Shown piece by piece: positions 5,965-25,745 of a DNA stretch of 64,000 nucleotides. The stretch is from the NCBI GenBank assembly GCA_946414435.1, contig CAMKOM010000001.1, positions 42,402 to 106,401 of the forward strand, in the 5' to 3' direction. A model generated the notes under the pieces. That model was not told the DNA's origin. It saw only the letters and a list, made by a program, of their open reading frames with translations, and searched no databases. A program made the translations under genes and the position numbers. Each line of letters opens with the position of its first letter. Positions within the stretch are counted from its first letter, which is position 1. The stretch is from an uncultured Bacteroidota bacterium. Lineage in GTDB: Bacteria > Bacteroidota > Bacteroidia > Bacteroidales > SZUA-534.

Positions 5965-7197
5965 TCATCCCCAGAAAATATATGCCACAACAATTGCCGC
6001 CACAATGCTCGCAAGGTCGGCAAGCAGGCCACAGACCACAGCGTGGCGCGTTTTGGTGATGCTCACGCTGCCGAAATAGACGGCCAGAATGTAGAACGTG
6101 GTGTCGGTTGCCCCTTGGAAACAGCACGCCAAACGGCCAGCGAACGAATCTGCGCCCATTTGGTTCATCGTCTCAATCATCACGCCGCGCGCGCCCGAGC
6201 CGCTCAAAGGCTTCATAAACGCCGTGGGCAGGGCATCGACAAAATCGGTGTTCAAGCCAACCAGGGCAAAGAACGAGCGCAGGCCGTCTATCAGGAAATC
6301 GAGCGCGCCAGAAGTGCGGAAAACGCCCACCCCGACAAGTATCGCAATCAGGTACGGAATGATTTTGATGGCAACGCCAAAGCCTTCCTTCGCACCTTCG
6401 ATAAACGCTTCATACACATTCACTTTTCGCCTGATAGCCAATGCAATAAACGAAATAATCACGCAAAACAGAATGATGTTGGCAATGAGCGACGACTGCG
6501 CGTTGACTGCTTCGCGCGGCAGCGTCACAAAGTACCAAATCAGGCCGCTGATGATGAGCGAGAAAACGGCGAAATAGCCGAGAAAAACCTTGTTGAAAAG
6601 ATTGATTTTCTGAAAGATGGAAACCGCCAGAATTCCGACAATAGTGCTGAAAAATGTTGCTATCAGAATCGGGATGAAAACGTCGGACGGGTCGGCGGCG
6701 CCCATCTGCGCGCGGTAAACCATAATGCTCACGGGTATCAGCGTCAGTCCTGAAGTGTTGAGTACCAGGAACATAATCATTGAGTTCGATGCGGTGTCCT
6801 TCTTCGGGTTCAGTTCCTGCAATTGGCTCATCGCCTTCAGTCCGAGCGGCGTGGCGGCATTGTCGATGCCGAGCATATTGGCCGCAAGGTTCATCATTAT
6901 TGAGCCGTTAACAGGGTGATTTTTAGGAATTTCGGGAAACAGTTTGTTGAAAAACGGCCCCATAATGCGAGAGAAGACGTTAATCATTCCGCCCTTCTCG
7001 CCTATCCGCATCAGACCGAGCCAGAGCGTCATCACGCCAGTCAGGCCGAGAGAAATTTCGAAGCCCGTTTTGGCCATATCGAAGGTGCTTGCCACCATTG
7101 CCGAAAAAATCTGCGTGTCGCCCAGAAAAATCAGTTTGATGAGCGCCACCACAAACGCTATCACGAAGAATGCTATCCAGATGTAGTTGAGAGCCAT
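5965..7197 (-). CDS. Polytopic membrane protein, nucleoside-recognition (Gate) / fused SpmA-SpmB-like
   Basis: 410 aa, hydrophobic throughout, with about 10 predicted TM segments. Overall resemblance to spore-maturation-protein-type transporters; the family call is from memory only. Confidence 0.55.
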   Translation of the reverse strand: MALNYIWIAFFVIAFVVALIKLIFLGDTQIFSAMVASTFDMAKTGFEISLGLTGVMTLWLGLMRIGEKGGMINVFSRIMGPFFNKLFPEIPKNHPVNGSIMMNLAANMLGIDNAATPLGLKAMSQLQELNPKKDTASNSMIMFLVLNTSGLTLIPVSIMVYRAQMGAADPSDVFIPILIATFFSTIVGILAVSIFQKINLFNKVFLGYFAVFSLIISGLIWYFVTLPREAVNAQSSLIANIILFCVIISFIALAIRRKVNVYEAFIEGAKEGFGVAIKIIPYLIAILVGVGVFRTSGALDFLIDGLRSFFALVGLNTDFVDALPTAFMKPLSGSGARGVMIETMNQMGADSFAGRLACCFQGATDTTFYILAVYFGSVSITKTRHAVVCGLLADLASIVAAIVVAYIFWG

Positions 7198-9448: not shown

Positions 9449-10336
9449 CTATTTATCGCCATATACCAATACATAATAAGTTTGGCTTGTTATTTCACCG
9501 CTTTCATCAACCCGATAATAATAATAGGTTATCGTGTTATCTTTATACTCGTAATCGGTTTGTTTTCCTACTAATATGCCATTTTCGTAAACTTCAACCA
9601 ATGAGATATTTCCATTGCTATCATATGATGTGTATTCTGCTCTATTGTTTCCGTCTTTATTGTACTCATATGATACTATGTGTTCACGTTTCGAATCTGT
9701 ATACACATATTTGATATGTGTCGAGTCAATACTGGTACTATAATCGTAATAATAATATCGACTGAAATAAACTGTATTTTCATCATACACAGTGATTTCT
9801 CTTTTGTATATTAGTTCACCTTGATATTCTACAAGTTCTATCAGATTTCCTTCATTGTCATAAGTATAGTACTCAGTATAATTTGCCGCCGAATGAGACA
9901 ATAATTGTTTGCGCTCCGAATCTGCATATGTGTCAACATAAACGTAGGTAGACCTATCCTCATAACCATAATCGGTATATAAATAGTTATCCGTTATTGT
10001 AACAACATTACCATTATAGTCATATTCATATTTATGCTGCGCATTGCCACTTATTGTTTCCACTACATCTCCATATTCGTTATACTTATAGTTACATTTA
10101 TATGTTTCCCTACCACTTCCTCCTTTAAGATTTCTTATCTCTATCATATTTCCCTGCTCGTCATATTTATATTCTGTCTTATATCTTTCGGAACCATCAA
10201 CAGTTGTTTCTGACAGCAACAACTTTTTACTCTTATCGAAATATGGTGCAAGTTCCTCCTCATCTGTTTTGCAACTGTAGAATGCACTACCAGCCAAAAG
10301 ACCGACAATCAAACCAAAGCCAAATATGTTTCTCAT
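9449..10336 (-). CDS. Lipoprotein with YD-like repeats
   Basis: Lipobox LLAGSAFYSC. Repeated YKYDEQGNMIE, YEYDYNGNVV, YTYDNEGNLIE, YEYNKDGNN, SYDSNGNISL. The gene is clearly AT-rich compared with its neighbours. Confidence 0.6.
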   Translation of the reverse strand: MRNIFGFGLIVGLLAGSAFYSCKTDEEELAPYFDKSKKLLLSETTVDGSERYKTEYKYDEQGNMIEIRNLKGGSGRETYKCNYKYNEYGDVVETISGNAQHKYEYDYNGNVVTITDNYLYTDYGYEDRSTYVYVDTYADSERKQLLSHSAANYTEYYTYDNEGNLIELVEYQGELIYKREITVYDENTVYFSRYYYYDYSTSIDSTHIKYVYTDSKREHIVSYEYNKDGNNRAEYTSYDSNGNISLVEVYENGILVGKQTDYEYKDNTITYYYYRVDESGEITSQTYYVLVYGDK

Positions 10337-13130: not shown

Positions 13131-14993
13131 ATGTCAACTGACGAAGCTAATAGGAACGATGCCAAGATTCAGAATTTGCTAAAAAAACTGGAATCGACAG
13201 AGCCAGAATTATGCTATGAAATAGAGAGTTACATTGACAAAGAAAAAAAATTGCGACAAGATGCCGAAGCCAAACTAGCAGCATGTCAAGAGCAACAAAA
13301 ACAAGATGAACAGTCTCTCAATTTGCTAAAAGATGAGTTCAACAAGCACCTGCAACGTTTCGAACTAATTGCAGAATCTGTAGCCATAGCAAACACTGAA
13401 GAATCCTGCCCGCAGGCGATAAATATGATTTTAAATCGCATTGGATTCCACTTGTCTCCTAAACGTATTCTGTTTTTTATTGACACCCCCGACTCAACAA
13501 TGAGCAAAATTGAGTACCAGTGGGTTGCACATAATGTTATGCCGTTTTCGCACAACACGGCCATTAAATACAAGGAATGCCCGTTGTGGCAAAAGATGCT
13601 GGCCGAGCACAAAATGGTTCCCGGATCACAACAGGACGATTTACCTGACGACATTACTCTGGTACTTGAAAACATAGGGCTGAAAAATGTCTATATGTTC
13701 CCTTTAACAGGCAACGATGGCACATCGTTTGGCTCAATCATGTTCGAAACCTACGAAAACAGCCAGCTCAGCAAACTTGAAATAAGGTATATACAAATAG
13801 TTACCATAGTACTATCAGGCATTATCCACATCTATCGGATTCTCAATGATTTGATTCGGGAAAAAGAACGTGCTGAAGAAGCCGATCGTCTCAAATCGTC
13901 ATTCCTGGTGAACGTGAGCCATGATATCCGCATTCCGATGAACGCCATCATCGGATTTAGCGACCTTCTTGCTGATGAGGACTTGACGCAAACTGAGCGC
14001 GAAGAGTTTATTGACATGATAAATAAGAGCGGTCAAGATCTTGTTACTCTGATAGATAACATTATCGATATATCGAAAATTGAGACAGGGCAAATGACCG
14101 TGAAAAAAGAGATTATACCTATTTTCCCGTTGTTCAACGACATTATGGCCGTGTTCAACAACAACCGCACCTTGGAAGATCGCGACGACCTTACACTGCA
14201 ACTCGACTTGCCGCCAAAGTTTGCCGATATAAAATTCAGTACCGACATTTTCAAATTCCGCCAAATTTGTACAAATCTGATCGACAATGCAATAAAATTC
14301 ACAAACAACGGTTATGTCAAATTCGGTGTGAGCCGCGCTTGGGATCAAACCATCGAATTTTATGTGCAAGATACCGGCATCGGCATTCCGGAAGACCAAC
14401 AACATATTATTTTCCAACGTTTTGGCAAAGTTGATCGAACTTTGACCAACGAATACACTGGTACCGGTTTGGGGCTCTCAATATGCAAGAGCATTGTTGA
14501 AATGCTTGGCGGTGAAATCCGCGTGGTATCAATTCCCGGCAAAGGCTCAACGTTCTATTTCACACACCCACTACAGGAAAAAGTATCAGACTCACTGACC
14601 AACAGCGAGGAGAAATCATTATTCGACTGGAAGGAGTACCGGATTGCCATTTTGGACAATTCCGAACAAGACCGCAAATACCTGACACACGTGCTATCGA
14701 ACACGGGAATTGAAATAATTTGGCTGAACACAAGTGACGATGCTGTCAAATTCTTTGAAAACAACAAACAAGCTGATATACTGCTCATTGAAATGTCAGC
14801 GGACAACATTAATGCGGCCGGGAAAATTCACAGCATCTCATCTGTGCCAATTATCGTCCAATCATCGAACTGTCAATCGAATGACGACCGTCAAACAGTT
14901 CTCCAATCGGGTTGCGCAGAATACCTTGCCAAGCCTTTCAGTGCCTCTAAATTGTTGACTACAATTGACAATTTGTTTACATATAAAGCATAA
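13131..14993 (+). CDS. Cytoplasmic hybrid-type sensor histidine kinase with a degenerate C-terminal receiver-like domain
   Basis: N-terminal coiled coil. H-box SFLVNVSHDIRIPMNAIIGF, N-box NLIDNAIKF, G1 DTGIGIP, G2 GTGLGLSI. The receiver-like tail ends in LAKPF but has ILDNSE and ILLIEMS where DD and the phospho-Asp are expected. Confidence 0.8.
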   Translation: MSTDEANRNDAKIQNLLKKLESTEPELCYEIESYIDKEKKLRQDAEAKLAACQEQQKQDEQSLNLLKDEFNKHLQRFELIAESVAIANTEESCPQAINMILNRIGFHLSPKRILFFIDTPDSTMSKIEYQWVAHNVMPFSHNTAIKYKECPLWQKMLAEHKMVPGSQQDDLPDDITLVLENIGLKNVYMFPLTGNDGTSFGSIMFETYENSQLSKLEIRYIQIVTIVLSGIIHIYRILNDLIREKERAEEADRLKSSFLVNVSHDIRIPMNAIIGFSDLLADEDLTQTEREEFIDMINKSGQDLVTLIDNIIDISKIETGQMTVKKEIIPIFPLFNDIMAVFNNNRTLEDRDDLTLQLDLPPKFADIKFSTDIFKFRQICTNLIDNAIKFTNNGYVKFGVSRAWDQTIEFYVQDTGIGIPEDQQHIIFQRFGKVDRTLTNEYTGTGLGLSICKSIVEMLGGEIRVVSIPGKGSTFYFTHPLQEKVSDSLTNSEEKSLFDWKEYRIAILDNSEQDRKYLTHVLSNTGIEIIWLNTSDDAVKFFENNKQADILLIEMSADNINAAGKIHSISSVPIIVQSSNCQSNDDRQTVLQSGCAEYLAKPFSASKLLTTIDNLFTYKA

Positions 14994-15286
14994 GCGTCAC
15001 ATTAAGCATCTCTTCTTGAATATAAACTTTTACGCACAATATTTTCCTAACACAAACAACCACTATCGTATTCAAATAAGCATAAAAAACTTAGATTTTA
15101 AACCATAACCCTATCCTATATTAAACATAATTTAACATTTCTGCGAAATTTTCTGCCACATGTGACAACTCCTATCCCCAAAGCGTGTTGTATATTTATC
15201 TTGCTAATGAGGACGAACAAATCTCCATAGTTCGTCTGTTCTCTTAATTAGCGCTATATGAAATGGTTGCTTAAAATCGTAATCGT

Positions 15287-16579
15287 ATGAAGATTAGCAA
15301 ATACACCTATATAATATACAAGTCAAATATAACTTATTGGTTTAACGGTATATCAAAGCAATATTTTGCTCTTAATACAGACTTTAGTAAAAAATTATTT
15401 GATGCCCTGCAAACTGAGTTAGGGCAAAATGAACTAGGACGCCAATATCCTACATTTATTAAGGTACTCATAGATGGAAATTTTGTCATCGAAGAAGGGA
15501 AAGATGAAATACAAACAATCAGAAATAATTTTGAGAATGGGCATAATTCAAAAGAATATAAGCTTACTATTTTGCCAACGCTAAACTGTAATTTTAATTG
15601 CTGGTACTGCATCCAAAAGCATATTGAAAGCAAGATGACACCAGAAACCATGCAAAAAATTAAAAACCACATCAATAAGATTATAAAAGAAGACAAAATA
15701 TGCTCTCTCAATATCGACTGGTTTGGTGGTGAACCATTAATGTACTTTTCTGATGTGATTGAGCCCATAAGTCATTTTGCAATTGAGCAGTGTGCAAAGG
15801 CAGAAATACCATTTTCAAACACAATAACAACTAACGCATATTATTTGACAAATCAAGTATGCAACAAACTAAACGAATTAAAAATTGATTTAATGCAAAT
15901 CACTCTTGACGGCAATCGCTGGATGCACAATAAAATTAAAAAGGCCGCTAATAGCGAATCCGCATTTGATATTGCGTTATATCATATAAACAATGCACTA
16001 TCAGCATCTGCCAAACTCTCAGTTTTGCTACGCATCAATTATACAAATGGCACAATTAGCAATGATTTGCTCAACCAAATATGCGAACACATTTCAGCAC
16101 AGAACAGAAGCCGTGTACAGTTTTTATTACGTAAAGTCTGGCAATCAGCAACTGATAGAAATAGAAAGTCCGAGGTTAGAAGTTTTTGGGGGAAAGCCAT
16201 TAATAATGGTTTTAAAGTTTGTGCCAATGATTTTGTTGATGGCATTCCGTGTTATGCGGACAAAAAGTTTTATGCCTGCATAAATTATAATGGCGAGGCC
16301 GTCCGGTGCACGGCCTGCGATGACCTTTATCTCGATGCCCCTGGTTCATTAGGCGAAGATGGCACAATAGCTTGGAATAAAGAAAAAACAAAAAAATTTG
16401 GAACACCAAATTTCGAGAATGCAACCTGTCTTTCCTGCAAACACTTACCTTTGTGTTTGGGCGGTTGTAACAACCATCGGCACATTCCCGACGATAAATT
16501 CTTATGTGAACAAGACAATAGAGTTTTCACTTTTGAAGAAGCAATTGAGAATTACATTGATTATGATACAATTAGTTAA
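15287..16579 (+). CDS. Radical SAM / SPASM-domain peptide maturase
   Basis: CxxxCxxC cluster motif in TILPTLNCNFNCWYC. GGEPL motif. C-terminal SPASM-type Cys pattern CYADKKFYAC...RCTAC...CLSCKHLPLCLGGC. About 90 aa precede the rSAM core. Confidence 0.85.
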   Translation: MKISKYTYIIYKSNITYWFNGISKQYFALNTDFSKKLFDALQTELGQNELGRQYPTFIKVLIDGNFVIEEGKDEIQTIRNNFENGHNSKEYKLTILPTLNCNFNCWYCIQKHIESKMTPETMQKIKNHINKIIKEDKICSLNIDWFGGEPLMYFSDVIEPISHFAIEQCAKAEIPFSNTITTNAYYLTNQVCNKLNELKIDLMQITLDGNRWMHNKIKKAANSESAFDIALYHINNALSASAKLSVLLRINYTNGTISNDLLNQICEHISAQNRSRVQFLLRKVWQSATDRNRKSEVRSFWGKAINNGFKVCANDFVDGIPCYADKKFYACINYNGEAVRCTACDDLYLDAPGSLGEDGTIAWNKEKTKKFGTPNFENATCLSCKHLPLCLGGCNNHRHIPDDKFLCEQDNRVFTFEEAIENYIDYDTIS

Positions 16580-16867
16580 CCATTTCTTCCTTGAGAACAG
16601 TATTACAATATACACTTGGTCGATTTACCAACTACATATTCTCCACTTGGAACTCCCGTTCATTTGCTAATATTACATTTTATCAAATGTGTATAAAAAC
16701 ATTTTACATTCGTATTAAAGAATGCATTACGCTATAAACCAAACTCTTTCATTATAAGCTCTTACCTTTAACCCGTTAACGAACAATAAAACAGGCCTAT
16801 TTTTAGTCGTTTACACGAGTAACCCGAAAAGCGTAGTGAGTAGGGATAAAATTTAAATATTTCACGT

Positions 16868-17017
16868 ATGAAACCAGTAAAAAAAGCTGTAAAAATTATT
16901 GATGAGAAAAAACTATCTACCACCAATGAGAAGGAACTATCCAAAATGATTGGTGGCATAAGGCGAAGTGGTTTTCTTATAACTGGCAGAGAATGCGACG
17001 GCATAAATAATTTATAG
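16868..17017 (+). CDS. 49-aa RiPP/bacteriocin precursor peptide with a double-glycine leader (not in the ORF track)
   Basis: ATG 16868 to TAG 17017 gives MKPVKKAVKIIDEKKLSTTNEKELSKMIGG/IRRSGFLITGRECDGINNL. The leader end ELSKMIGG fits the classical ELxx(I/M)xGG double-glycine consensus. It lies between the rSAM and YcaO genes, upstream of a C39-ABC exporter, and is followed by a strong hairpin terminator. Confidence 0.7.
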   Translation: MKPVKKAVKIIDEKKLSTTNEKELSKMIGGIRRSGFLITGRECDGINNL

Positions 17018-17024
17018 ATTTTGT

Positions 17025-17058
17025 TAGGTCGACAAAGTTTTTGTCGACCTACTTTTTT
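17025..17058 (+). terminator. Rho-independent (probably leaky) terminator directly after the precursor gene
   Basis: TAGGTCGACA-AAGTTTT-TGTCGACCTA (10-bp stem), then C and TTTTTT. It starts 8 nt after the stop codon and lies 40 nt before the YcaO start. Confidence 0.8.
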
Positions 17059-17097
17059 GTCACAATTATATTACGGTTATCATAAAAAAATATTGAT

Positions 17098-18789
17098 ATG
17101 AAAAAATACAAAGAATGCCCGCCCGAAGAAACTATAGCCAGAATAAAGTCTATATTAACCCATAATAATATTAAAGTAAAAGTTACGAAATCAGACAATA
17201 AATTTTTCTATTCGTGCAGAGTTGATATATCAAACGATAAATTAAAAAAAATCAAATTCGGGGTAAATGGGAAAGGTATGACTGAGAACTACTCGTTAGC
17301 AAGTGGTTATGCCGAACTAATGGAATGGCTTCAAAATAAATTTTTGCTTGTAAATAACTCATTATGTTTTTATAAACACTTGGAAAAATCATTAATAGAA
17401 GCCAACATAATTGATGCTGACAACCGTGATAACAATAATTGTTTGTTTTACAATACATCAAAAGTCGATTTCTATTCAGTTAAAGAAAAATGTGTTAAAC
17501 AATTTTCTGCAAATGATTTTCTTTACCAAACAGGAAGCAATGGATTCTGTGCTGGAAATACAGCAAAAGAAGCGATAACACATGGTATTTGCGAGATATT
17601 TGAAAGATTCGCTGTCAAGCAGATTTCAGAGGAAAAGCTATCACTCCCAACCATTCCATTAGATTATTATAAGGATACCAAATTGTATAAAAAAATAAAT
17701 GGACTTCTAAAACAAAACGAGAATATTAAAGTGATAATAAAAGATTGTTCGTTGGATAAAGGACTGCCTGTTGTTGGTGTATTAATAATCGATACCGAAA
17801 ATCAGATTTATAACTTTCAGTTAGGTTCTGATTGCAACCCTATCGTGGCCACAGAACGGTGTTTTACAGAATTGTATCAAAATACAAAAAGCATAATAGG
17901 TGAGCCTTTTTTATTTCATCGTGAACAAACAAAATGGGACGTTGACAGAATTATTGGGTATGGTAGTGGACAATGGCCAATTTCAATCTTTAGCGAAAAC
18001 ACAGATTTTTCATTTAATCCAAATAGCCAATTCTATTCAAATGAAATAGAAAATGATTTAGAATATTGCGTTAAAATAGTAAATGATTTTCGTTGTGATA
18101 TATATATACGTGATAACTCGTTTTTAGGATTTCCAACCTATTATGTTGTAATTCCAGGTATGAGTATGAAAAAAAACAACAGAATTCTTACTGATAAATG
18201 TCTATTCCAAAGCGATTTGTTCAGTAAATTAGACTATATTTCAAAAGAAGAATTATTGAAATTAACAACAGAATTAGAAAATGAGTACAACAAAATCAAA
18301 AGTTTAGATATTATTTTTGATATAACGAAGCATATTCCAATAAACACAAATGATGAACTAAATGAACTTGATTTCGATCTCTTTCTGGCTCTATCTATGT
18401 ATAAATTAGAATTATATGACAAATTCATATTCTATATGGATAAGTTTTTAAAAGATAAAAACGAAAAAGAATATGTCTATTTTTGGGTGGCATACAATTT
18501 TGTACTCTTACACCAAATACAAAAACAAGATATTAACTCAGCAACAAGTATTCTCAGCAAATGTTATGGTGCCGAATTAGTAAAAGAAGTAATAAATGAT
18601 ATGATTAACCCATATGAAATATTCAAATACTACAAATTACCATCTTACCCCAATTGCTCACAATGTAAATTGAAAAAAGACTGCCGAGTTGACGATGTTG
18701 TACAAATATGTTTAGATTTACGCAAAAAAGAAGCATCTGCAAACATTGACCAATGGAAACTTGCTGAAGTATTTGATTTTGAAACTTGA
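17098..18789 (+). CDS. YcaO-domain protein, E. coli YcaO-like architecture with a long C-terminal (TPR-like?) region
   Basis: NGKGMTENYSLASGYAELMEW and SNGFCAGNTAKEAITHGICEIFERF, then SLPTIP and DCSLDKGLPVVGVLI...GSDCNPIVATERCFTELYQ. These parallel, from memory, E. coli YcaO NGKGATKKAALASALGEYFER / SNGMSAGNT..EA..GLSEVFER / SLPEIP / ALERTVTELLQG. Confidence 0.8.
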   Translation: MKKYKECPPEETIARIKSILTHNNIKVKVTKSDNKFFYSCRVDISNDKLKKIKFGVNGKGMTENYSLASGYAELMEWLQNKFLLVNNSLCFYKHLEKSLIEANIIDADNRDNNNCLFYNTSKVDFYSVKEKCVKQFSANDFLYQTGSNGFCAGNTAKEAITHGICEIFERFAVKQISEEKLSLPTIPLDYYKDTKLYKKINGLLKQNENIKVIIKDCSLDKGLPVVGVLIIDTENQIYNFQLGSDCNPIVATERCFTELYQNTKSIIGEPFLFHREQTKWDVDRIIGYGSGQWPISIFSENTDFSFNPNSQFYSNEIENDLEYCVKIVNDFRCDIYIRDNSFLGFPTYYVVIPGMSMKKNNRILTDKCLFQSDLFSKLDYISKEELLKLTTELENEYNKIKSLDIIFDITKHIPINTNDELNELDFDLFLALSMYKLELYDKFIFYMDKFLKDKNEKEYVYFWVAYNFVLLHQIQKQDINSATSILSKCYGAELVKEVINDMINPYEIFKYYKLPSYPNCSQCKLKKDCRVDDVVQICLDLRKKEASANIDQWKLAEVFDFET

Positions 18790-18818
18790 TATAACCTTTC
18801 TGTATTCAAAGATATTTT

Positions 18819-21161
18819 ATGAAAAAAAACACTGTGTCATTTATCTTGCTATTCTTGGTATTTGTATCAAACGCCCAAACCATCACTGGCAAAGTAACTG
18901 ATACACAAAACGAACCCGTACCCAATGCCGTACTCATTCTACAAAACTCCGATTCATCTTTTGTGAGTGCCACTACAACCGATTCATTAGGCAACTTCAA
19001 CATTGAAATCAGCATTAACAATGGTATAGTACAAGTTCTGCATTTAGCCTACGAGAACAAGACAATCAACTTTACTAATGGTGATTTTTCTGTACTGAAA
19101 AGCATAACATTAACCGAAAAGTCAACTGAATTGGACGGCGTTACAGTAAAAGCCGAAGCACCGGCAGTGATTGTCAAAGACAACGCATTGGTTTACAACG
19201 CACAACGAATAAACGAGAAAAAGGCTGTAAGCAACGCTTTCGAATTGCTTCAATACACGCCTGGTATAACAACCAGAAACGATGAAATAAGCCTTGCCGG
19301 AGCATCGCAATTGACTGTGATAATCGACGGCAAAGCCACAATGCTCAGCAACGCTGAGATAGCCGAAGTATTGAAAGCTATGCCTGCAAGCAGCATCGGC
19401 AATATTGAAGTGATGTATAAAGCACCGGCAAAATATGGTGTTAAAGGTGCGCTTATAAACATTGCAACCGACAAAAAACGGCGAGAAACGCCATTGGAAG
19501 CCGAACTTGCAACCGAATACACCCAACAGTTCTACGCACAAGGGCGAACAAGAGCAAATATTGCTTACCGTGGAGAGAAACTCGATATTGATGCCCTCGC
19601 CAATACATCGTATGGTAAAACCAGAAACGAAAATACCGAGCATTCAATAAACAATTTCAACGGCATTCAAACTATTATCGAAGAGTATGACGTTACAGTC
19701 GATAAATATGCCAGCAACATTTTCCGCACGGCAATCGACTATAACTTCAACAAAGACAATTCGATATCACTGATGTATTATGGCAAATTGTCAAAAAATG
19801 ACCACCCGATAAAATCGGGAACCAACTTCATTTATCATACTGGTGAAACGAATTTTGTGAACAGTACAAACAATGATGACCGTAAAAACCAATTACATAA
19901 TATGAACCTAAAAGGCTCATTTGGCGGAGTTGGCATCACTACCGATTATGTTTCATATTACCATAAATCGGAATCAAAATACAAAGATTTTGAAAATGAC
20001 AGCATAACAACTGATTATCAGAACAATTCGACAATGGATATTGACCAGTTGAAACTGCTTGCGAGCTACGACTGGGAGATTAGCGACACGTGGCAGATGA
20101 GTGCCGGAGCGCAGGGGACAATGACCAATTCCGCCACCGAAGTGAGCTATCTCTACCCGAAAAACGGCAATTATGAACTTGACAAAAACAGCTATAGCGA
20201 CAATTTGCAAAAAGAGCGACGGCTTTCTGTCTTTGCCGAAACGTTCAATACCGTATTCGACAGCGTTGAACTCGATTTCACTGTTGAAGTTGAATATTTC
20301 AAATCAGACTACGATGAAAACGTCACAAAATCAACCCTGTGGAACGAATGGCAGATTTATCCGAGCCTGTCGGTTATGTGGCCACTTAAGCGCGACATCA
20401 TTCAGTTGTCATTATCAACCTACAAGAACTACCCAACCTATTGGAATTTAAGTTCTCACACCACACAAATGAACCCTTACACTTTTGCGATTGGCAATCC
20501 AACTCTCAAACCATCAACCAATTACAACTTTAATTTTACGTATATGCTACGTAAACAATATTCAGTATGGACATATCTCTATTATGAGAAAGACGCTTTC
20601 AGAGAAATTCCCTATCAGAATGCAGCAGAGCTCAAATGTTATTACCAGAGTGTGAATTTTGATTATGCAATTTTTAGTGGCATCGGTGGCGAATTCCCAT
20701 TTTGTGTTGGGTATTGGAACCCAACTTTAGGCTGCGATTTAATGTATACAAGGAATAAAATGTCTGATTTCCACGGATTGTCATTCGACCGCGACAAGGT
20801 TTTCTACGATTTATATATTGAAAATACTTTTACAATATCGGAAGAAAAACCAAATTTAAAATTTATGCTTAACGCCGAATATCAGTCGAAATCAATCCAA
20901 GGTATTTTCGATATGAGTGACGGATACAACCTTGAAATAGGTATGAAATGGGCTATTTTGAAGAATTTGATATTCACTACCAATTGGTCCGATATTTTTG
21001 AACAGTGGAACGGATACCCGTCCACAGTGAATTTCAACGGTCAGTATACCAAATTAGACAAGAAACAATTTAACCGTTTCAAAGCATCTATTGTCTGGCG
21101 CATTGGCGGGTTCAAGGCCAAGGAAGTTGAAATGACTGATATACAAAGGATGCAACGATAA
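18819..21161 (+). CDS. Outer-membrane beta-barrel protein with N-terminal carboxypeptidase-regulatory-like domain (TonB-dependent-receptor-like / OMP_b-brl_3-like)
   Basis: Signal peptide MKKNTVSFILLFLVFVSNAQ. ITGKVTDTQNEPVPNAVLIL CarbopepD_reg-like start. Plug-like AFELLQYTPGI. Long Tyr/Asn-rich region with alternating beta-strand pattern. Confidence 0.7.
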   Translation: MKKNTVSFILLFLVFVSNAQTITGKVTDTQNEPVPNAVLILQNSDSSFVSATTTDSLGNFNIEISINNGIVQVLHLAYENKTINFTNGDFSVLKSITLTEKSTELDGVTVKAEAPAVIVKDNALVYNAQRINEKKAVSNAFELLQYTPGITTRNDEISLAGASQLTVIIDGKATMLSNAEIAEVLKAMPASSIGNIEVMYKAPAKYGVKGALINIATDKKRRETPLEAELATEYTQQFYAQGRTRANIAYRGEKLDIDALANTSYGKTRNENTEHSINNFNGIQTIIEEYDVTVDKYASNIFRTAIDYNFNKDNSISLMYYGKLSKNDHPIKSGTNFIYHTGETNFVNSTNNDDRKNQLHNMNLKGSFGGVGITTDYVSYYHKSESKYKDFENDSITTDYQNNSTMDIDQLKLLASYDWEISDTWQMSAGAQGTMTNSATEVSYLYPKNGNYELDKNSYSDNLQKERRLSVFAETFNTVFDSVELDFTVEVEYFKSDYDENVTKSTLWNEWQIYPSLSVMWPLKRDIIQLSLSTYKNYPTYWNLSSHTTQMNPYTFAIGNPTLKPSTNYNFNFTYMLRKQYSVWTYLYYEKDAFREIPYQNAAELKCYYQSVNFDYAIFSGIGGEFPFCVGYWNPTLGCDLMYTRNKMSDFHGLSFDRDKVFYDLYIENTFTISEEKPNLKFMLNAEYQSKSIQGIFDMSDGYNLEIGMKWAILKNLIFTTNWSDIFEQWNGYPSTVNFNGQYTKLDKKQFNRFKASIVWRIGGFKAKEVEMTDIQRMQR

Positions 21162-21195
21162 ATTGAAAATTGAAAATTGAGAATAGAAAATTATA
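21161..21195. repeat. 7-bp tandem repeat AATTGAA x5 (degenerating) between the OM barrel and ABC genes
   Basis: AATTGAA AATTGAA AATTGAG AATAGAA AATTATA. The 15-mer AATTGAAAATTGAAA recurs at 35333-35347. Confidence 0.9.
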
Positions 21196-21253
21196 TCTGT
21201 GTAAATCAGTCACATTAACGTTCCTGACAGTTATCGAGACTGCGTTCAAAAAA

Positions 21254-23449
21254 ATGCTAAACGTGTTCAAGAAATTGCATTTCCCGCTTATTCTGCAAGC
21301 CGACTCAAGTGATTGCGGCGTGGCAAGCCTTGCTATGATTGCACGATACTATGGCGCAAGCATAGATTACGACACCTTACGACAAAGGTGTCAAGTTTCT
21401 CGTGCTGGCATCAGTATGCTAACCATCAATATCGAAGCACAAAAATTGGGATTTGAGACAAACGCAGTACAACTGCAATTTGACACTCTGCGTACCGAAG
21501 CGCAACTGCCGTGCATTGTCTTTTGGAATAAGGAACATTTTATAGTTATACGCCGCGTAACCAAACGCAAAGTGTTAGTAGCCGACCCGGGCAAAGGACT
21601 ACTTGCCTACTCTCACGCCGATTTTCAGAAAAACTGGTGCTGCGAGGATGACAAGGGTTACGCCCTGCTGCTCAATCCTGTAAATCTGGAAACCAGCGGC
21701 ATTGCCCAAAAGAAGAAATCAGCCCTGCGCCAACTTCTGCAATATGCCGCAAAACGCAAGCGCGATTTTGCCAAAGCCGCCGCCCTGCTTCTATTAGCAA
21801 GTCTGCTGCAATTGGTCATTCCTTTTCTAACGCAAGCCGTAGTCGACAAAGGTGTTGAGCAAAAAAACATCAATTTGCTAATTACTATATTACTCGCACA
21901 AGGTGGATTGATTTTAGGACGTACCATAGCCGACTTCGGACGACAGTGGATTACGCTCAAAATAAGTGCTTTTGTCAACATATCAATAATTTCTGATTTT
22001 ATTGAGAAACTGTTGCACCTGCCAATACCTTTCTTTGAAGCAAAGAAAACCGCCGACATTATTCAACGCATCTTTGATTTCGAGCGAATCGATAATTTTA
22101 TGACGCAATACTCAATGTCATTTTTATTTTCGGTGGTTTCGTTCGCGGTATTTGGCATTGTTTTAGCTACATATTCACCCAAAATGCTTATTATTTTTCT
22201 GATAGGCAGTACATTATATTTAAGTTGGATTCTACTCTTTATTGGTCACCGCCGGATTTTGGACAAAACTCGATTCGACCGTATGTCGCAAACCCAATTC
22301 AACACCATCGAAATTGTTGAAGGCGCATCAGAAATACGCTTACGCGACAGCCAAACATACTTTAAATGCAAATGGCGTGATGCGCAAGAGCAAGTGTACG
22401 ATGTTAATTTTAAAAGTCTCAAACTTGAACAGCACAGCGAGTTGGGTGCAACAGTAATAAACGAGTCGAAAAATTTGCTCATTACATTTGCCGTGGCATC
22501 GATGGTGATTAACGATCAGCTTACATTGGGCACAATGCTTGCAGTACAGTATATTATCGGTCAGATGAATAGTCCGCTTGACAAGATGGTGATTTTCGTC
22601 AACCGGATGCAAGACACAAAACTGAGCCTTGAACGCATTGCCGATGTTACCGACAAGGCCGACGAGAACGAGAATACCCCCATTCCAACACTCAATGGCG
22701 GCACCGAAGGGATTTCCGTATGCGACGTATCGTTCGCTTACAATTCCACACCCGATGATTTGGTACTCAACAATATCAACATACATATTTCAAAAGGGAA
22801 AACAACTGCTATTGTCGGCTCGAGTGGTAGTGGGAAAACAACACTTCTAAAACTGATTCTGCAATACTACAAACCTCAACAAGGCGGAATATTCATCAAC
22901 GATGCACAAAACGAACCGCTGACTGCAGGAAAGTTCCGCCGATTATGTGGCTGCGTGATGCAAGACGGTTACATTTTTTCCGACACCATTGCCCGTAATA
23001 TTGTGATGAACGAAAAAGATGAAGATATTGATTACGAAAGACTTGAATCTGCGGCAAGAACTGCTTGCATTTTCGATTTTATTGTGTCGCTGCCCATTGG
23101 GTTTATGACAAAAATCGGAGATGCCGGGTTAGATTTGAGCAAAGGCCAGAAACAAAGGATATTGATAGCCCGCGCAATCTATGCCAATCCAAATTATCTG
23201 TTTTTCGATGAAGCCACAAATTCACTCGACACAGTGAACGAAAAAATGATAACCGACAATTTGCAAAGCATTTACAAAGGTCGCACGGTTCTTGTAATCG
23301 CGCACCGGCTAAGTACGGTCCGCAATGCCGACCAAATAATAGTTTTAGAAAAAGGACAGGTTGCCGAAGTTGGAACACACGATGAGTTGATTGAACGGAA
23401 AGGCAATTACTACAATCTGATTCGTAATCAGTTGGAATTGGAGTCCTAA
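21254..23449 (+). CDS. Bacteriocin/RiPP ABC exporter with N-terminal C39 double-glycine peptidase domain
   Basis: Start placed at ATG 21254 (MLNVFKK) rather than the TTG at 21170, which lies inside the tandem repeat. C39 contexts QADSSDCGVASLAMIARYYG (Cys), KEHFIVIRRV (His), VADPGKG (Asp). Six-TM ABC region. Walker A GSSGSGKTT, signature LSKGQKQR, Walker B LFFDEATNSLD. Confidence 0.9.
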   Translation: MLNVFKKLHFPLILQADSSDCGVASLAMIARYYGASIDYDTLRQRCQVSRAGISMLTINIEAQKLGFETNAVQLQFDTLRTEAQLPCIVFWNKEHFIVIRRVTKRKVLVADPGKGLLAYSHADFQKNWCCEDDKGYALLLNPVNLETSGIAQKKKSALRQLLQYAAKRKRDFAKAAALLLLASLLQLVIPFLTQAVVDKGVEQKNINLLITILLAQGGLILGRTIADFGRQWITLKISAFVNISIISDFIEKLLHLPIPFFEAKKTADIIQRIFDFERIDNFMTQYSMSFLFSVVSFAVFGIVLATYSPKMLIIFLIGSTLYLSWILLFIGHRRILDKTRFDRMSQTQFNTIEIVEGASEIRLRDSQTYFKCKWRDAQEQVYDVNFKSLKLEQHSELGATVINESKNLLITFAVASMVINDQLTLGTMLAVQYIIGQMNSPLDKMVIFVNRMQDTKLSLERIADVTDKADENENTPIPTLNGGTEGISVCDVSFAYNSTPDDLVLNNINIHISKGKTTAIVGSSGSGKTTLLKLILQYYKPQQGGIFINDAQNEPLTAGKFRRLCGCVMQDGYIFSDTIARNIVMNEKDEDIDYERLESAARTACIFDFIVSLPIGFMTKIGDAGLDLSKGQKQRILIARAIYANPNYLFFDEATNSLDTVNEKMITDNLQSIYKGRTVLVIAHRLSTVRNADQIIVLEKGQVAEVGTHDELIERKGNYYNLIRNQLELES

Positions 23450-23467
23450 AAAAGTATTGCTGATTGT

Positions 23468-23496
23468 TCGCGATATTTTCTGTATATCGCGATTTA
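23468..23496 (+). terminator. Hairpin TCGCGATAT-N7-ATATCGCGA followed by TTTAT, after the ABC exporter gene
   Basis: 9-bp perfect stem, 19 nt after the stop codon, with a short U-tract. Confidence 0.5.
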
Positions 23497-23521
23497 TGTC
23501 AAGACATTTTATTTCTATTCT

Positions 23522-23529
23522 TATATTTG
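23522..23529 (+). promoter_or_regulatory. Bacteroidota -7 promoter box TATATTTG
   Basis: Exact TAnnTTTG match, but 240 nt upstream of the HTH gene ATG (23770). This implies a long leader or an unannotated transcript. Confidence 0.3.
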
Positions 23530-23769
23530 CGTTATAATAAATGTTTAATACACAAAAAACTGTTTGATATTTAGAGAAATAAAAAACAAATAGCATTTTT
23601 TCGCATCGGTTCTTCCCAATTAAAAACCGCCATTTTTTAAGCTAACAGAACAGATGACGATGGTTTTATGCCTCAAGGTGTGAACTATTCGTGTTTATCT
23701 GTTAGCAAGGTTGCTTGGCGGTTACCTTATGGGGAGATAAATCCTAACGAATGGCAAACGCCTTTTTTT

Positions 23770-23985
23770 ATGAGCATTCACATTGGACATAGGATACAAG
23801 AAGTGATTAGGAGTCAAGGACGTACTATTACTTGGTTCTCTAAGCAGATATGTTGCACACGAGAAAACGCATACGACATATTCAAACGTTCCAACATCGA
23901 CACCGAACTGCTTAAACGAATATCCAATGTGCTAAATCATAATTTCTTTCAAGATTTGGCTGAAGACATAAGCTGCAAACAATAA
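23770..23985 (+). CDS. Small helix-turn-helix (XRE-like) DNA-binding protein
   Basis: 71 aa from ATG 23770 (MSIHIGHRIQEVIRSQGRTITWFSKQICCTRENAYDIFKR...). HTH-like pattern TITWFSKQICCTRENAYDIFKR. The listed 105-aa form starting at 23668 is less likely. Confidence 0.6.
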   Translation: MSIHIGHRIQEVIRSQGRTITWFSKQICCTRENAYDIFKRSNIDTELLKRISNVLNHNFFQDLAEDISCKQ

Positions 23986-24008
23986 GCCAAACATCCATTG
24001 GCATAAAA

Positions 24009-24044
24009 ACGGCTGAATGTTACGATAACAAAACATCCAGCCGT
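24009..24044. terminator. 13-bp imperfect hairpin between convergent genes
   Basis: ACGGCTGAATGTT-N10-AACATCCAGCCGT (one mismatch), between the HTH gene stop (23985) and the ettA stop (24066). Confidence 0.5.
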
Positions 24045-24065
24045 TAAGTTACTTGTCAAAGGAAA

Positions 24066-25745
24066 TTAATCCTCTTTCAGTTTCCGATACTTAATACGAT
24101 GCGGCTCAATGTCGCCCAGACGTTTCTTCTTATTTTCCTCATATTCAGAGTATGAGCCTTCGAAGAAATAGACTTGCGAGTCGCCTTCGAACGCCAAAAT
24201 GTGAGTGGCCACGCGGTCGAGAAACCATCGGTCGTGCGAAATGACGACGGCGCAACCAGCAAAGTTCTCAAGGCCTTCCTCAAGAGCACGCAGTGTGTTC
24301 ACATCAATATCGTTGCCTGGCTCGTCGAGCAGCAGCACGTTGGCCTCCGATTTAAGCGTGAGAGCCAAATGCAGACGGTTTCGCTCGCCGCCCGAAAGCA
24401 CACCAGCCTTCTTCTCCTGGTCGGCACCCGAGAAGTTGAAACGCGACAGATAGGCCCGCGTATTAACAAACCGTCCGCCGATTTTTATCTCGTCCAATCC
24501 ATCGGAAATTATCTGGTAGACAGTCTTTTCGGGGTCGATTTTGGCGTGCATCTGGTCGATATAGCCGAGTTTGACGGTCTCTCCCACCTTGAACTCACCG
24601 CTATCGGGTTTCTCAATGCCCATAATCAGGCGGAAAAGCGTGGTTTTGCCAGCGCCGTTCGGACCAATGACGCCGACAATGCCGTTTTGCGGCAGAACAA
24701 AATTCAGGTTCTCATAGAGCAGCTTGTCACCATATGCCTTGCTAACATTGTGTGCTTCAATAACATTCGTACCCAAACGCGGTCCGTTCGGAATGAAGAT
24801 TTCGAGTGTCTGCTCCTTCTCTTTTGTGTCTTCGTTGAGCAGGCGGTCGTAAGCGTTCAAACGCGCTTTCTGCTTGGCTTGGCGGGCTTTCGGGGCCATA
24901 CGCACCCACTCCAACTCGCGCTCAAGAGTCTTTCGGCGGCGGCTCTCGGTCTTCTTCTCCATCTCAAGGCGCTTGGTTTTCTGCTCAAGCCACGACGAGT
25001 AGTTTCCCTTCCACGGAATACCTTCGCCGCGGTCGAGTTCGAGAATCCAACCTGCCACATTATCAAGGAAATAACGGTCGTGAGTAACGGCAATAACCGT
25101 GCCTTTGTATTGCTGCAAATGCGCTTCGAGCCACTGCACCGATTCGGCGTCAAGATGGTTGGTGGGCTCATCAAGCAGCAGAATGTCAGGCTCTTGCAGA
25201 AGTAATCGGCACAAAGCCACACGGCGGCGCTCACCACCCGACAGGTTCTCTATCTTCCAATCGGCTGGCGGACAGCGCAATGCGTCCATCGCGCGCTCCA
25301 GTGTGCTATCAAGTTCCCAACCGTTGTGCTGCTCAATCAACTCGGTCAGTTCGCCCTGACGCTCAATGAGTTTGGTCATTTCATCGTCGCTCATCGGCTC
25401 GGCAAACTTCAGGTTCACTTCTTCGTACTCCTTCAGCAAAGCGACAACTTCGGCCGTGCCTTCTTCAACCACTTCACGCACAGTCTTTTGCGGGTCGAGT
25501 TGCGGTTCCTGCTCCAGATAGCCGACCGAATAGCCTGGCGAGAATACGACCTCACCTTCGAAACTCTTGTCAACGCCTGCGATAATCTTCATCAGCGTCG
25601 ATTTTCCCGCGCCGTTCAAGCCCAAAATGCCGATTTTGGCGCCGTAGAAAAACGACAAATAAATGTTGTTCAATATCTTTTTCTGCGGCGGAATGGTCTT
25701 GCCCACTCCCACCATCGAGAAAATAACCTTGTTGTCTTCTGCCAT
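24066..25745 (-). CDS. ettA: Energy-dependent translational throttle ABC-F protein EttA
   Basis: 559 aa with two ABC cassettes (GLNGAGKST and GPNGAGKTT; LSGGERRR and LSGGERNR). N-terminus [25 protein letters not shown] and the interdomain linker are typical of EttA. Confidence 0.9.

Follow-up and report, generated by a model that had tools for sequence, protein, structure and literature searches.

The stretch analysed here, referred to as the window, comprises 64,000 nucleotides (nt) of contig CAMKOM010000001.1 from an uncultured Bacteroidota bacterium of the order Bacteroidales, and our subject is a short open reading frame (ORF) of 49 codons within it. This ORF and its signals lie between the gene of a radical S-adenosylmethionine (rSAM) enzyme with a SPASM domain and an operon encoding a YcaO protein, an outer-membrane barrel and an exporter that joins a C39 peptidase to an ATP-binding cassette (ABC) transporter. 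The ORF very probably encodes the precursor of a peptide that is ribosomally synthesized and modified post-translationally (RiPP), processed by this cluster along the lines proposed below. The gene forms a compact unit: a DUF805b-like element, 21 nt, a leader of 30 amino acids (aa) ending in a double glycine (GG), a 19-aa core and then, 7 nt after the stop codon, a hairpin with a U-run. Its parts are as follows.

16580-16812, plus strand: conserved intergenic region, with many invariant columns in an alignment (A2) with the related loci L012 and L006.
16813-16846, plus strand: DUF805b-like element, a short hairpin whose loop reads CCGAAAA and, after it, GAGUAGG in single-stranded form.
16868-17017, plus strand: precursor ORF of 49 codons, from ATG at 16868 to TAG at 17015-17017, product MKPVKKAVKIIDEKKLSTTNEKELSKMIGGIRRSGFLITGRECDGINNL.
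16868-16957, plus strand: leader peptide, 30 aa, MKPVKKAVKIIDEKKLSTTNEKELSKMIGG, with a GG end, Glu at -8, Leu at -7 and Met at -4.
16958-17017, plus strand: core peptide, 19 aa, IRRSGFLITGRECDGINNL, and the stop codon; it carries a motif common to relatives.
17025-17058, plus strand: predicted intrinsic terminator, a 12-bp stem with a 3-nt loop and then C and T6, recognised by its fold and the conservation of its structure.

The gene had been proposed as an unannotated 49-aa ORF masked by a 78-aa antisense ORF, and we refer to that proposal as the original prediction. The coordinates and translation given there agree exactly with MKPVKKAVKIIDEKKLSTTNEKELSKMIGGIRRSGFLITGRECDGINNL, and the antisense ORF is indeed found at 16768-17004 on the minus strand. 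Length by itself does not raise the ORF above chance, 12 ORFs of at least 20 aa overlapping 16500-17150; the finding stands above chance because of its gene context and its conservation in other loci. The exact protein is already recorded in a protein collection as this contig's product (P0001). Searching 5.8 billion proteins with the precursor returned P0001 and two homologues, P0002 (...KLIGG ARRSGFVVTGRDCVTNRNA) and P0003 (...KMIGG TTMRRRSGFYITGRTCG), which are 83-84% identical over 88% of the query and occupy the same position among the same neighbour genes; against Pfam the precursor gave no match. More relatives were reached through loci found with YcaO, with the rSAM enzyme and by a metagenome scan, among them the precursors of L012 (...KIIGG KNGKRSGFLITGREATVR), L006 (MKTVNVKKQQKLVGG NKRSGFVVTGRIATAR), L092 (...LVGG AKRSGIIVTKRN...) and L097 (...KLIGG NKRSGLRVTGRECTAQK). 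Homologous small ORFs in syntenic clusters, whose absence the original prediction had named as the finding that would count against it, are thus present at the same position in related rumen metagenome loci. The metagenome scan with a five-sequence peptide alignment (A4) yielded no more than three loci, of which one duplicated L002, and L093 was a chance match in high-GC DNA with no ORF. By these searches the precursor family is rare, being carried by only a few rumen-type contigs, and represents a new family within a known cluster type.

Openness of the antisense frame was dropped as a coding test, since long open antisense stretches occur in all homologues and therefore do not discriminate, and a codon test was used instead. 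Six pairwise comparisons of the 90-nt leader among the window, L001, L004 and L097 gave 42 synonymous and 19 non-synonymous codon differences in the sense frame, 27 and 29 in the frame of the antisense ORF, and at most 9 synonymous differences in any of the remaining four frames. The ten codons of the core motif RRSGFxxTGR likewise differ mainly synonymously (seven synonymous and one non-synonymous difference between the window and L004), and the insertions and deletions that separate the homologues in length are all in frame. On these comparisons we regard the small ORF as a real gene, and its reading as a precursor gene is supported by the syntenic small ORFs, the synonymous bias, the GG-ended leaders and the C39 exporter in the cluster.

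The leader positions assigned in the original prediction proved correct: the leader ends in E(-8) L(-7) S K M(-4) I G G, with Gly-Gly at -2/-1, and this end fits the double-glycine consensus, while position -12 is Thr, a non-hydrophobic residue. The GG is invariant in every relative, over leader lengths of 15-30 aa. The leaders of the window, L001, L004 and L097 are near-identical, with mostly synonymous differences. An 8-aa segment occurs twice in the window leader (IDEKKLST and TNEKELSK) and once in that of L012, which has a single copy (IDEKSLSK). The four loci with an rSAM gene all have the longest leader (30 aa), and the loci with YcaO only have leaders of 15-25 aa; the extra 8-aa segment may be a recognition segment for the rSAM enzyme, a pattern that is suggestive only.

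The core motif [RK]RSGFxxTGR is common to the window, L001, L004, L012 and L006 and closely resembled in L097 and L092, and the tail after it is variable. As had been predicted, the core has 19 aa and a cationic N-terminus (IRRSGFLITGR), but the tail ECDGINNL is acidic and the core as a whole carries a net charge of only some +0.75 at pH 7. The single Cys is also there, although the conserved feature is [RK]RSGFxxTGR(xC) and not the 'RECDG' context to which attention had been drawn. The rough mass of 2.1 kDa holds for the unmodified core, calculated at 2134.42 Da (average) or 2133.11 Da (monoisotopic).

A hairpin followed by T6 does lie between the ORF and the YcaO gene, as claimed, but the 10-bp stem described there is too short: 12 perfect pairs, five of them G-C, enclose a GTT loop at 17025-17051, and the T6 ends at 17058. 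The hairpin begins 7 nt past the precursor stop and ends 39 nt ahead of the YcaO start. Its RNA fold has an energy of -16.9 kcal/mol (z = -4.3), matched by 0 of 200 shuffles, and as an inverted pair the stem sequence occurs only at this site in the window; terminator-like sites as a class show no clear enrichment in 14900-24100 (13 against 7.6 ± 2.9 expected). Among the relatives, L001, L004 and L097 retain the same stem, with one G-U pair in L004 and a double change from A-T to G-C in L097. In L012 (GGCGGCA...TGCCGCC) and L006 (GAGGCTGTGC...GCACAGCCTC), stems of unrelated sequence occupy the same place and are followed by a T-run. The compensatory change and the wholesale replacement of the stem therefore indicate that the structure is conserved and the sequence is not. 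Of the 20 loci folded, 17 have a hairpin that begins within 0-17 nt of the precursor stop and has an energy of about -14 to -26 kcal/mol; distant loci in Prevotella, Bacteroides and Tannerellaceae are among them.

We infer that the hairpin acts as a partial, or 'attenuating', terminator, because YcaO starts only 39 nt further on with no recognisable promoter between them. Speculatively, a terminating ribosome that covered the 5' arm of the stem could provide a route to read-through. Lantibiotic operons such as nisA-nisB have precursor-proximal terminators. The hairpin here likewise separates the structural gene from the enzyme genes, an arrangement that would raise the level of precursor mRNA above that of enzyme mRNA; lantibiotic operons differ in having Firmicutes promoters and translation signals, unlike those of this Bacteroidales host.

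Directly upstream of the start codon, outside the range of the original prediction, lies a stretch whose conservation exceeds that of the coding sequence, and this is so even for L012 and L006. Here the Rfam model RF02914 (DUF805b, clan CL00115) matches 16814-16846 over its full length of 35 nt with 26.5 bits (E = 3.5e-5 in a search of 801 nt), and the window copy has the hallmarks of the motif, a short stem around a CCGAAAA loop and a 3' GAGUAGG. From the end of the matched element to the AUG there are 21 nt, and from the end of its GUAGG 24 nt. The 801-nt search also gave matches to SpF25 and Pistol (E of 0.9-9), which were dismissed as chance. In a scan of the whole window no Rfam family reached its gathering score. 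Six distant copies, at L020, L041, L058, L013, L035 and L059, exceed the gathering score of RF02914 (38.5-48.7 bits) and precede small ORFs, most of them with a GG leader. With a simple pattern we found 27 copies in the window and 90 loci (1.30 Mb), every one on the gene strand. Downstream of each copy an ATG begins a small ORF, and nearly all of these ORFs have a GG leader. GUAGG and ATG are 23-26 nt apart in most of these copies, and 36-38 or 59 nt apart in four. Loci bearing the motif include some with an rSAM gene only, and in L008 it precedes 10 of 12 tandem precursor genes. Copies of the DUF805b type outside the window include the following.

L008, 6536-10414
L020, 7726-7761
L041, 10095-10130
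L058, 3837-3872
L013, 963-996
L035, 12290-12325
L098, 6625-6658

Two central stem pairs covary across 19 copies, one of them being CG in nine, AU in six and GC in three. The covariation score of the stem, 0.446 against 0.191 for shuffles, was reached by 0 of 500 shuffles and exceeded that of all slid controls. A model (R1) built from the 19 copies gave 32 matches in 1.32 Mb, most of which are its training sequences; all lie on the gene strand and one is in the window. Among the new matches, those of L092 and of L050 and L052 (both at 6294) lie ahead of GG-leader ORFs, and the one at L052:12953 lies ahead of a 26-aa ORF without a GG motif. The name of RF02914 refers to DUF805 genes, whereas in all loci of this analysis it is small ORFs that follow the motif, GG leaders being present in nearly all of them, and no DUF805 genes were seen; the literature that we searched on DUF805b named the motif only in a methods paper. 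We lean towards a 5' RNA element, with a promoter as the alternative.

Further upstream, the conserved intergenic region 16580-16812 can be assigned to the precursor unit rather than to the rSAM gene, because L012 and L006 share it and have no rSAM gene upstream. It presumably holds a promoter or regulatory region. Inspection by eye upstream of the precursor and in the 39 nt before YcaO gave no convincing promoter of the Bacteroides type (-33 TTTG / -7 TAnnTTTG), and a sigma-70 scan (38 sites against 33 expected) was uninformative, this consensus not being apt for Bacteroidales.

The remaining genes and features of the cluster are these.

13131-14993, plus strand: hybrid histidine kinase with a receiver domain (Pfam HisKA, HATPase_c and Response_reg).
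15287-16579, plus strand: rSAM/SPASM maturase (Pfam Radical_SAM, E = 1e-11).
17098-18789, plus strand: YcaO (Pfam PF02624, E = 2.6e-42), with a C-terminal domain like that of E. coli YcaO.
18819-21161, plus strand: outer-membrane beta-barrel, like a TonB-dependent receptor (Pfam CarboxypepD_reg, Plug (weak) and OMP_b-brl_3).
21170-23449, plus strand: C39-peptidase ABC exporter, or peptidase-containing ABC transporter (PCAT; Pfam Peptidase_C39 (E = 2e-35), ABC_membrane and ABC_tran).
23468-23492, plus strand: terminator-like hairpin at the operon end, a 9-bp stem 19 nt after the PCAT stop.

The rSAM translation contains the CxxxCxxC motif (CNFNCWYC) and a Cys-rich C-terminus. Its best NCBIfam matches are maturases of Cys peptides and thioethers (Clo7bot, TIGR04463, CefB, PapB and SCIFF), all below their cut-offs (131 of 600 for Clo7bot, 68 of 340 for PapB and 60 of 425 for SCIFF), and among solved structures it is nearest to the thioether synthase CteB (5WGG, E = 2.7e-8). 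For YcaO, the best NCBIfam match is YcaO_for_S12, covering residues 147-504, the C-terminal domain included, with 124 bits against a cut-off of 700, and the closest solved structure is E. coli YcaO (4Q84, E = 5.6e-15). An alignment with 22 relatives (A1) showed Glu and Arg to be invariant and C520, C523 and C529 to be near-invariant; these three Cys form a C-x2-C-x5-C cluster at residues 520-529, within PNCSQCKLKKDC of the C-terminal domain, which may be a metal or Fe-S site. None of the cluster ORFs encodes an E1-like, dehydrogenase or TfuA partner. No TfuA gene lies between 13131 and 23985, so the pair of YcaO and TfuA that marks thioamide formation is lacking. Nor does the cluster fit the azoline class of thiazole/oxazole-modified microcins and linear azole-containing peptides, TIGR03604 (SagD-type) scoring 48.9 bits against a cut-off of 219 and the cluster containing no partner or dehydrogenase gene. 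No enzyme of the cluster reaches a curated NCBIfam equivalog cut-off.

The PCAT also matches NCBIfam families of bacteriocin cleavage and export, and its true start is probably the ATG at 21254 (731 aa), as in the L001 homologue. For its C39 domain the best alignment is with LahT150, a double-glycine protease (6MPZ, E = 4.9e-19), and the domain is a protease of the active type, because the catalytic Gln, Cys, His and Asp are conserved. The barrel gene follows YcaO or the precursor in L001, L004, L006, L010, L012, L092 and L097, and its product could serve in export or uptake across the outer membrane. The kinase gene, which may regulate the cluster, also adjoins it in L004 (100% identity), L012 (82%), L092 (70%) and L097; a PAP2 gene takes its place in L001 and L006.

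Across the related loci, both the rSAM gene and YcaO accompany the precursor in the window and L001, the rSAM gene alone in L004 and L097, and YcaO alone in L006, L012, L092, L009 and L008. Because either occurs alone, the two enzymes are independent modules on one precursor scaffold. The Cys in TGRxC is present at all four loci with an rSAM gene and at none of the four single-precursor loci without one (L006, L012, L092 and L009). Relatives of the rSAM enzyme at 65% and 41% identity also adjoin Cys-containing GG peptides, the latter being very common in Bacteroidales. YcaO relatives of 30-99% identity have GG-leader ORFs directly upstream, and this extends to those of 30-36% in Prevotella, Bacteroides, Tannerellaceae and Marinilabiliaceae. 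The DNA of the window and L004 is identical from upstream to about leader codon 18 (about 16920 in the window and 4360 in L004) and then diverges, which indicates recombination inside the conserved leader: the kinase and rSAM genes of L004 are 100% identical to those of the window, the core is different, YcaO is absent and the barrel is 67% identical.

Several of these loci have features of their own. At L004 4308-5136 and L097 2885-3217, a precursor with Cys is found with an rSAM gene and a barrel gene and no YcaO. In L008 (6592-10555; ENA ERZ28653751 scaffold_1025), a single YcaO, with 67% identity to that of the window, lies amid an array of 12 tandem GG-leader genes (29-46 aa); the cores are very variable and rich in Lys and Arg, and no rSAM, exporter or barrel gene lies within 17.7 kb. 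L010 (7666-14228) and L011 combine a GG peptide with an Arg-rich core, a YcaO of 39% identity, a barrel and a Ser/Thr protein kinase, and here a stand-alone C39 peptidase of 210 aa replaces the fused exporter. In L094 and L096 (1657-6944), rSAM relatives of 65% identity stand beside an ATP-grasp (MvdD-like) gene with its own GG-leader peptide and two barrel genes, so that several RiPP systems appear to lie side by side; L094 has a C39-ABC exporter, at the position of which the contig of L096 breaks off within a gene that carries no annotation.

Among described systems, the itf cluster of Bacteroides thetaiotaomicron, reportedly the work of Clark and Seyedsayamdost in J Am Chem Soc in 2022, comes closest. 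This cluster consists of the precursor ItfA, the YcaO ItfB, the rSAM enzyme ItfD, the C39-ABC exporter ItfE and the TonB-dependent transporter ItfF (PMC11002830). ItfA ends in Ile-Thr-Phe, ItfB makes a backbone amidine at the Thr-Phe bond of this C-terminal tripeptide, and ItfD joins Trp to an Ile two residues apart by a C-C crosslink (PMC11002830, PMC10352776). The window resembles it in its GG-leader precursor, YcaO with an extra C-terminal domain, rSAM/SPASM enzyme, C39-ABC exporter and TonB-dependent or barrel protein, in the lack of a membrane-fusion protein and in a host within the Bacteroidales. It differs in its core, which ends in ...DGINNL (the relatives end variably) and in which the internal I-T-G is not C-terminal, so that the amidine site of ItfA is absent. 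Further differences are that the window rSAM enzyme comes from a family found beside Cys-containing peptides, and that in this precursor family the rSAM gene and YcaO occur separately as well as together. Neither the window core nor any other core of the RSGF family contains Trp, which, together with the ...GINNL end, makes a Trp-Ile crosslink of the ItfD type impossible. The window thus has an itf-type architecture but not a precursor of the itf family.

A BAGEL4 survey of Bacteroidales describes biosynthetic gene clusters, BGC6-8, that also come near to the window and combine rSAM, YcaO, PCAT and an outer-membrane protein, and for BGC7 and BGC8 from Porphyromonas gulae its authors proposed thioether and amidine chemistry by bioinformatics (PMC10352776). 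These two share with the window the rSAM enzyme, YcaO, PCAT, outer-membrane protein and GG-leader precursor, and differ in their precursor family (61 aa, two Cys, two Thr and a C-terminal Phe) and in an aminotransferase/homeodomain gene that is absent from the window. The same survey contains nothing that matches RSGFxxTGR cores (PMC10352776), and the Hungate1000 bacteriocin survey does not describe a cluster of the window's type. To ranthipeptides and sactipeptides (CteB, PapB) the window is linked by its rSAM enzyme, which is nearest to CteB and has its best NCBIfam matches among maturases of Cys peptides and thioethers, and by a core Cys that tracks the rSAM gene; its core differs in having a single Cys and no CX3D/E or multi-Cys pattern, and the equivalog scores are far below cut-off. 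The cluster type is already published, and what is worth following up is the precursor family, the natural separation of the enzymes and the DUF805b association.

These comparisons can be combined into a proposed mechanism. The precursor would be transcribed at a high level, with most transcripts stopping at the hairpin and a fraction reading into YcaO, the barrel and the exporter; supply of the operon by read-through is proposed because no recognisable promoter was seen in the 39 nt before YcaO. The rSAM/SPASM enzyme would then form a bond between the only Cys of the core (residue 13, in TGR-E-C) and a carbon in some other residue, a Cys thioether being the likeliest reaction given that CteB is the closest structure. 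The partner would probably be on the N-terminal side, because the L004 core ends in C-G. YcaO would phosphorylate a backbone amide in RSGF-x-x-TGR, after which a nucleophile would replace the oxygen. By analogy with ItfB, our best guess for its site is the amide after Thr in [IV]-Thr-Gly (L-I-T-G-R in the window, V-T-P in Prevotella cores), which is the least certain step of the scheme; an oxazoline formed from Ser or Thr would be an alternative product. Finally, the C39 domain would cut after Gly30, the ABC part would export the 19-residue product and the barrel would handle the outer membrane. Cleavage after GG and export are proposed because the catalytic residues are intact and from established knowledge of such transporters. 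The product would probably be an antagonistic or signalling peptide.

A number of observations weigh against this reading of the locus as a precursor gene matured by its neighbours. Expression, cleavage and both modifications are deduced from the DNA letters, and the enzymes are likened to ItfB (WP_004319383.1) and ItfD (WP_004319392.1) by architecture and not by sequence; among ten NCBI-sourced YcaO clusters checked for the ItfB accession, none contained it. The leader reaches none of the curated NCBIfam leader profiles: NF046113 (BLP_Lacticasei), a bacteriocin-like family of Lacticaseibacillus, is its only match at E ≤ 0.1 (E = 0.016) and scores 15.2 bits where the cut-off is 40. The correlation between Cys and the rSAM gene comes from eight loci that are closely related, and L008, with Cys-containing cores and no rSAM gene within 17.7 kb, breaks the rule. 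The rSAM gene lies upstream of the precursor's own conserved regulatory region, and its co-transcription with the precursor is not obvious; it is probably a separate transcription unit, because that regulatory region travels with the precursor. The window copy of RF02914 remains under the gathering score of 35.6, and some hairpins of related loci have no clear U-run.

Among other explanations, the one that survives best, though we still think it improbable, is that of a double-glycine (class II-type) bacteriocin or pheromone that undergoes export but no modification, with the rSAM enzyme and YcaO acting on some other substrate. Unmodified GG-leader bacteroidetocins do exist in Bacteroidales (PMC10352776), neither enzyme reaches a curated family cut-off, and E. 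coli YcaO, to which the window YcaO is closest among solved structures, has a link to ribosomal protein S12 and does not act on RiPPs. Such a peptide would nevertheless have to be unrelated to two enzymes whose genes lie less than 300 nt from its own, and would leave aside the GG-leader ORFs directly upstream of YcaO relatives across 30 to 99% identity and the co-occurrence of Cys with the rSAM gene; the published itf enzymes, in a cluster of like architecture, do modify their GG-leader precursor.

Modification and export of the encoded peptide also have to be set against the very unlikely case of a regulatory leader peptide, the translation of which would only control read-through into the YcaO operon and the product of which would be functionless. 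A short ORF with a terminator close behind it is the layout of ribosome-mediated attenuators, the operon genes follow without a recognisable promoter, and at 7 nt after the stop codon (0-17 nt in related loci) the hairpin is near enough for a terminating ribosome to cover its 5' arm. A functionless product does not, however, explain why the core motif is kept at the amino-acid level while its codons vary synonymously, or why the invariant GG fits an intact C39 protease of the cluster. The 12 tandem copies of L008 vary greatly in their cores, and a 5' element precedes most of them individually; L004 and L097 keep the ORF and hairpin though YcaO is absent. The ORF has no runs of regulatory codons, and no antiterminator fold was seen, although none was specifically sought.

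It is scarcely credible that the real gene is the 78-aa antisense ORF (16768-17004, minus strand) or that the region is non-coding and conserved only as RNA: the long stop-free antisense stretches in all homologues are expected from the Lys-rich AAA codons of the sense frame and the antisense frame's own partial synonymous excess (27 against 29) arises because third codon positions are shared with the sense frame, whose ratio is clearly better (42:19), and moreover the antisense ORF would cross the conserved 5' RNA element, searches with the sense peptide gave homologues called as genes on other contigs, and the spacing of 23-26 nt from GUAGG in most of the 27 pattern hits is to the sense AUG.

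With the locus read as a RiPP precursor gene, a wider proposal can be put forward tentatively, as one that we think may well fail. DUF805b-type RNA would be a dedicated 5' leader of GG RiPP precursor genes in Bacteroidales and, together with the post-stop hairpin, would delimit a portable 'precursor cassette' that recombines inside the leader and so swaps cores and enzyme modules. Such recombination would explain why the RSGFxxTGR scaffold is found with YcaO only, with the rSAM enzyme only or with both. Should this hold, a motif that is an orphan in Rfam would be given a biological setting and could be used to search for RiPP precursors that lack annotation. More immediately, the 5' element and post-stop hairpin offer sequence handles for short precursor genes that are missed by ORF length cut-offs, and to the YcaO/rSAM clusters of Bacteroidales from gut and rumen, which have been little studied, the window contributes a rare precursor family whose core motif is conserved. 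The loci with one or both enzymes also constitute a natural experiment in enzyme specificity, in which nature has already separated the two modifications.

The cluster as a whole is an island of low GC content (0.29-0.43 against about 0.50 in the flanks). Its closest match among reference genomes is a sheep-rumen Salinivirgaceae metagenome-assembled genome, with a YcaO of 73% identity, and the flanking genes, which encode a glycoside hydrolase family 10 (GH10) xylanase/esterase, an ABC-F protein and a PP2C-LysM protein, fit a fibre-degrading rumen organism of the Bacteroidales. A second patch of low GC content (about 0.32) lies at 9449-10336 on the minus strand, where an ORF of 295 aa with RHS repeats may be a fragment of a polymorphic toxin locus.

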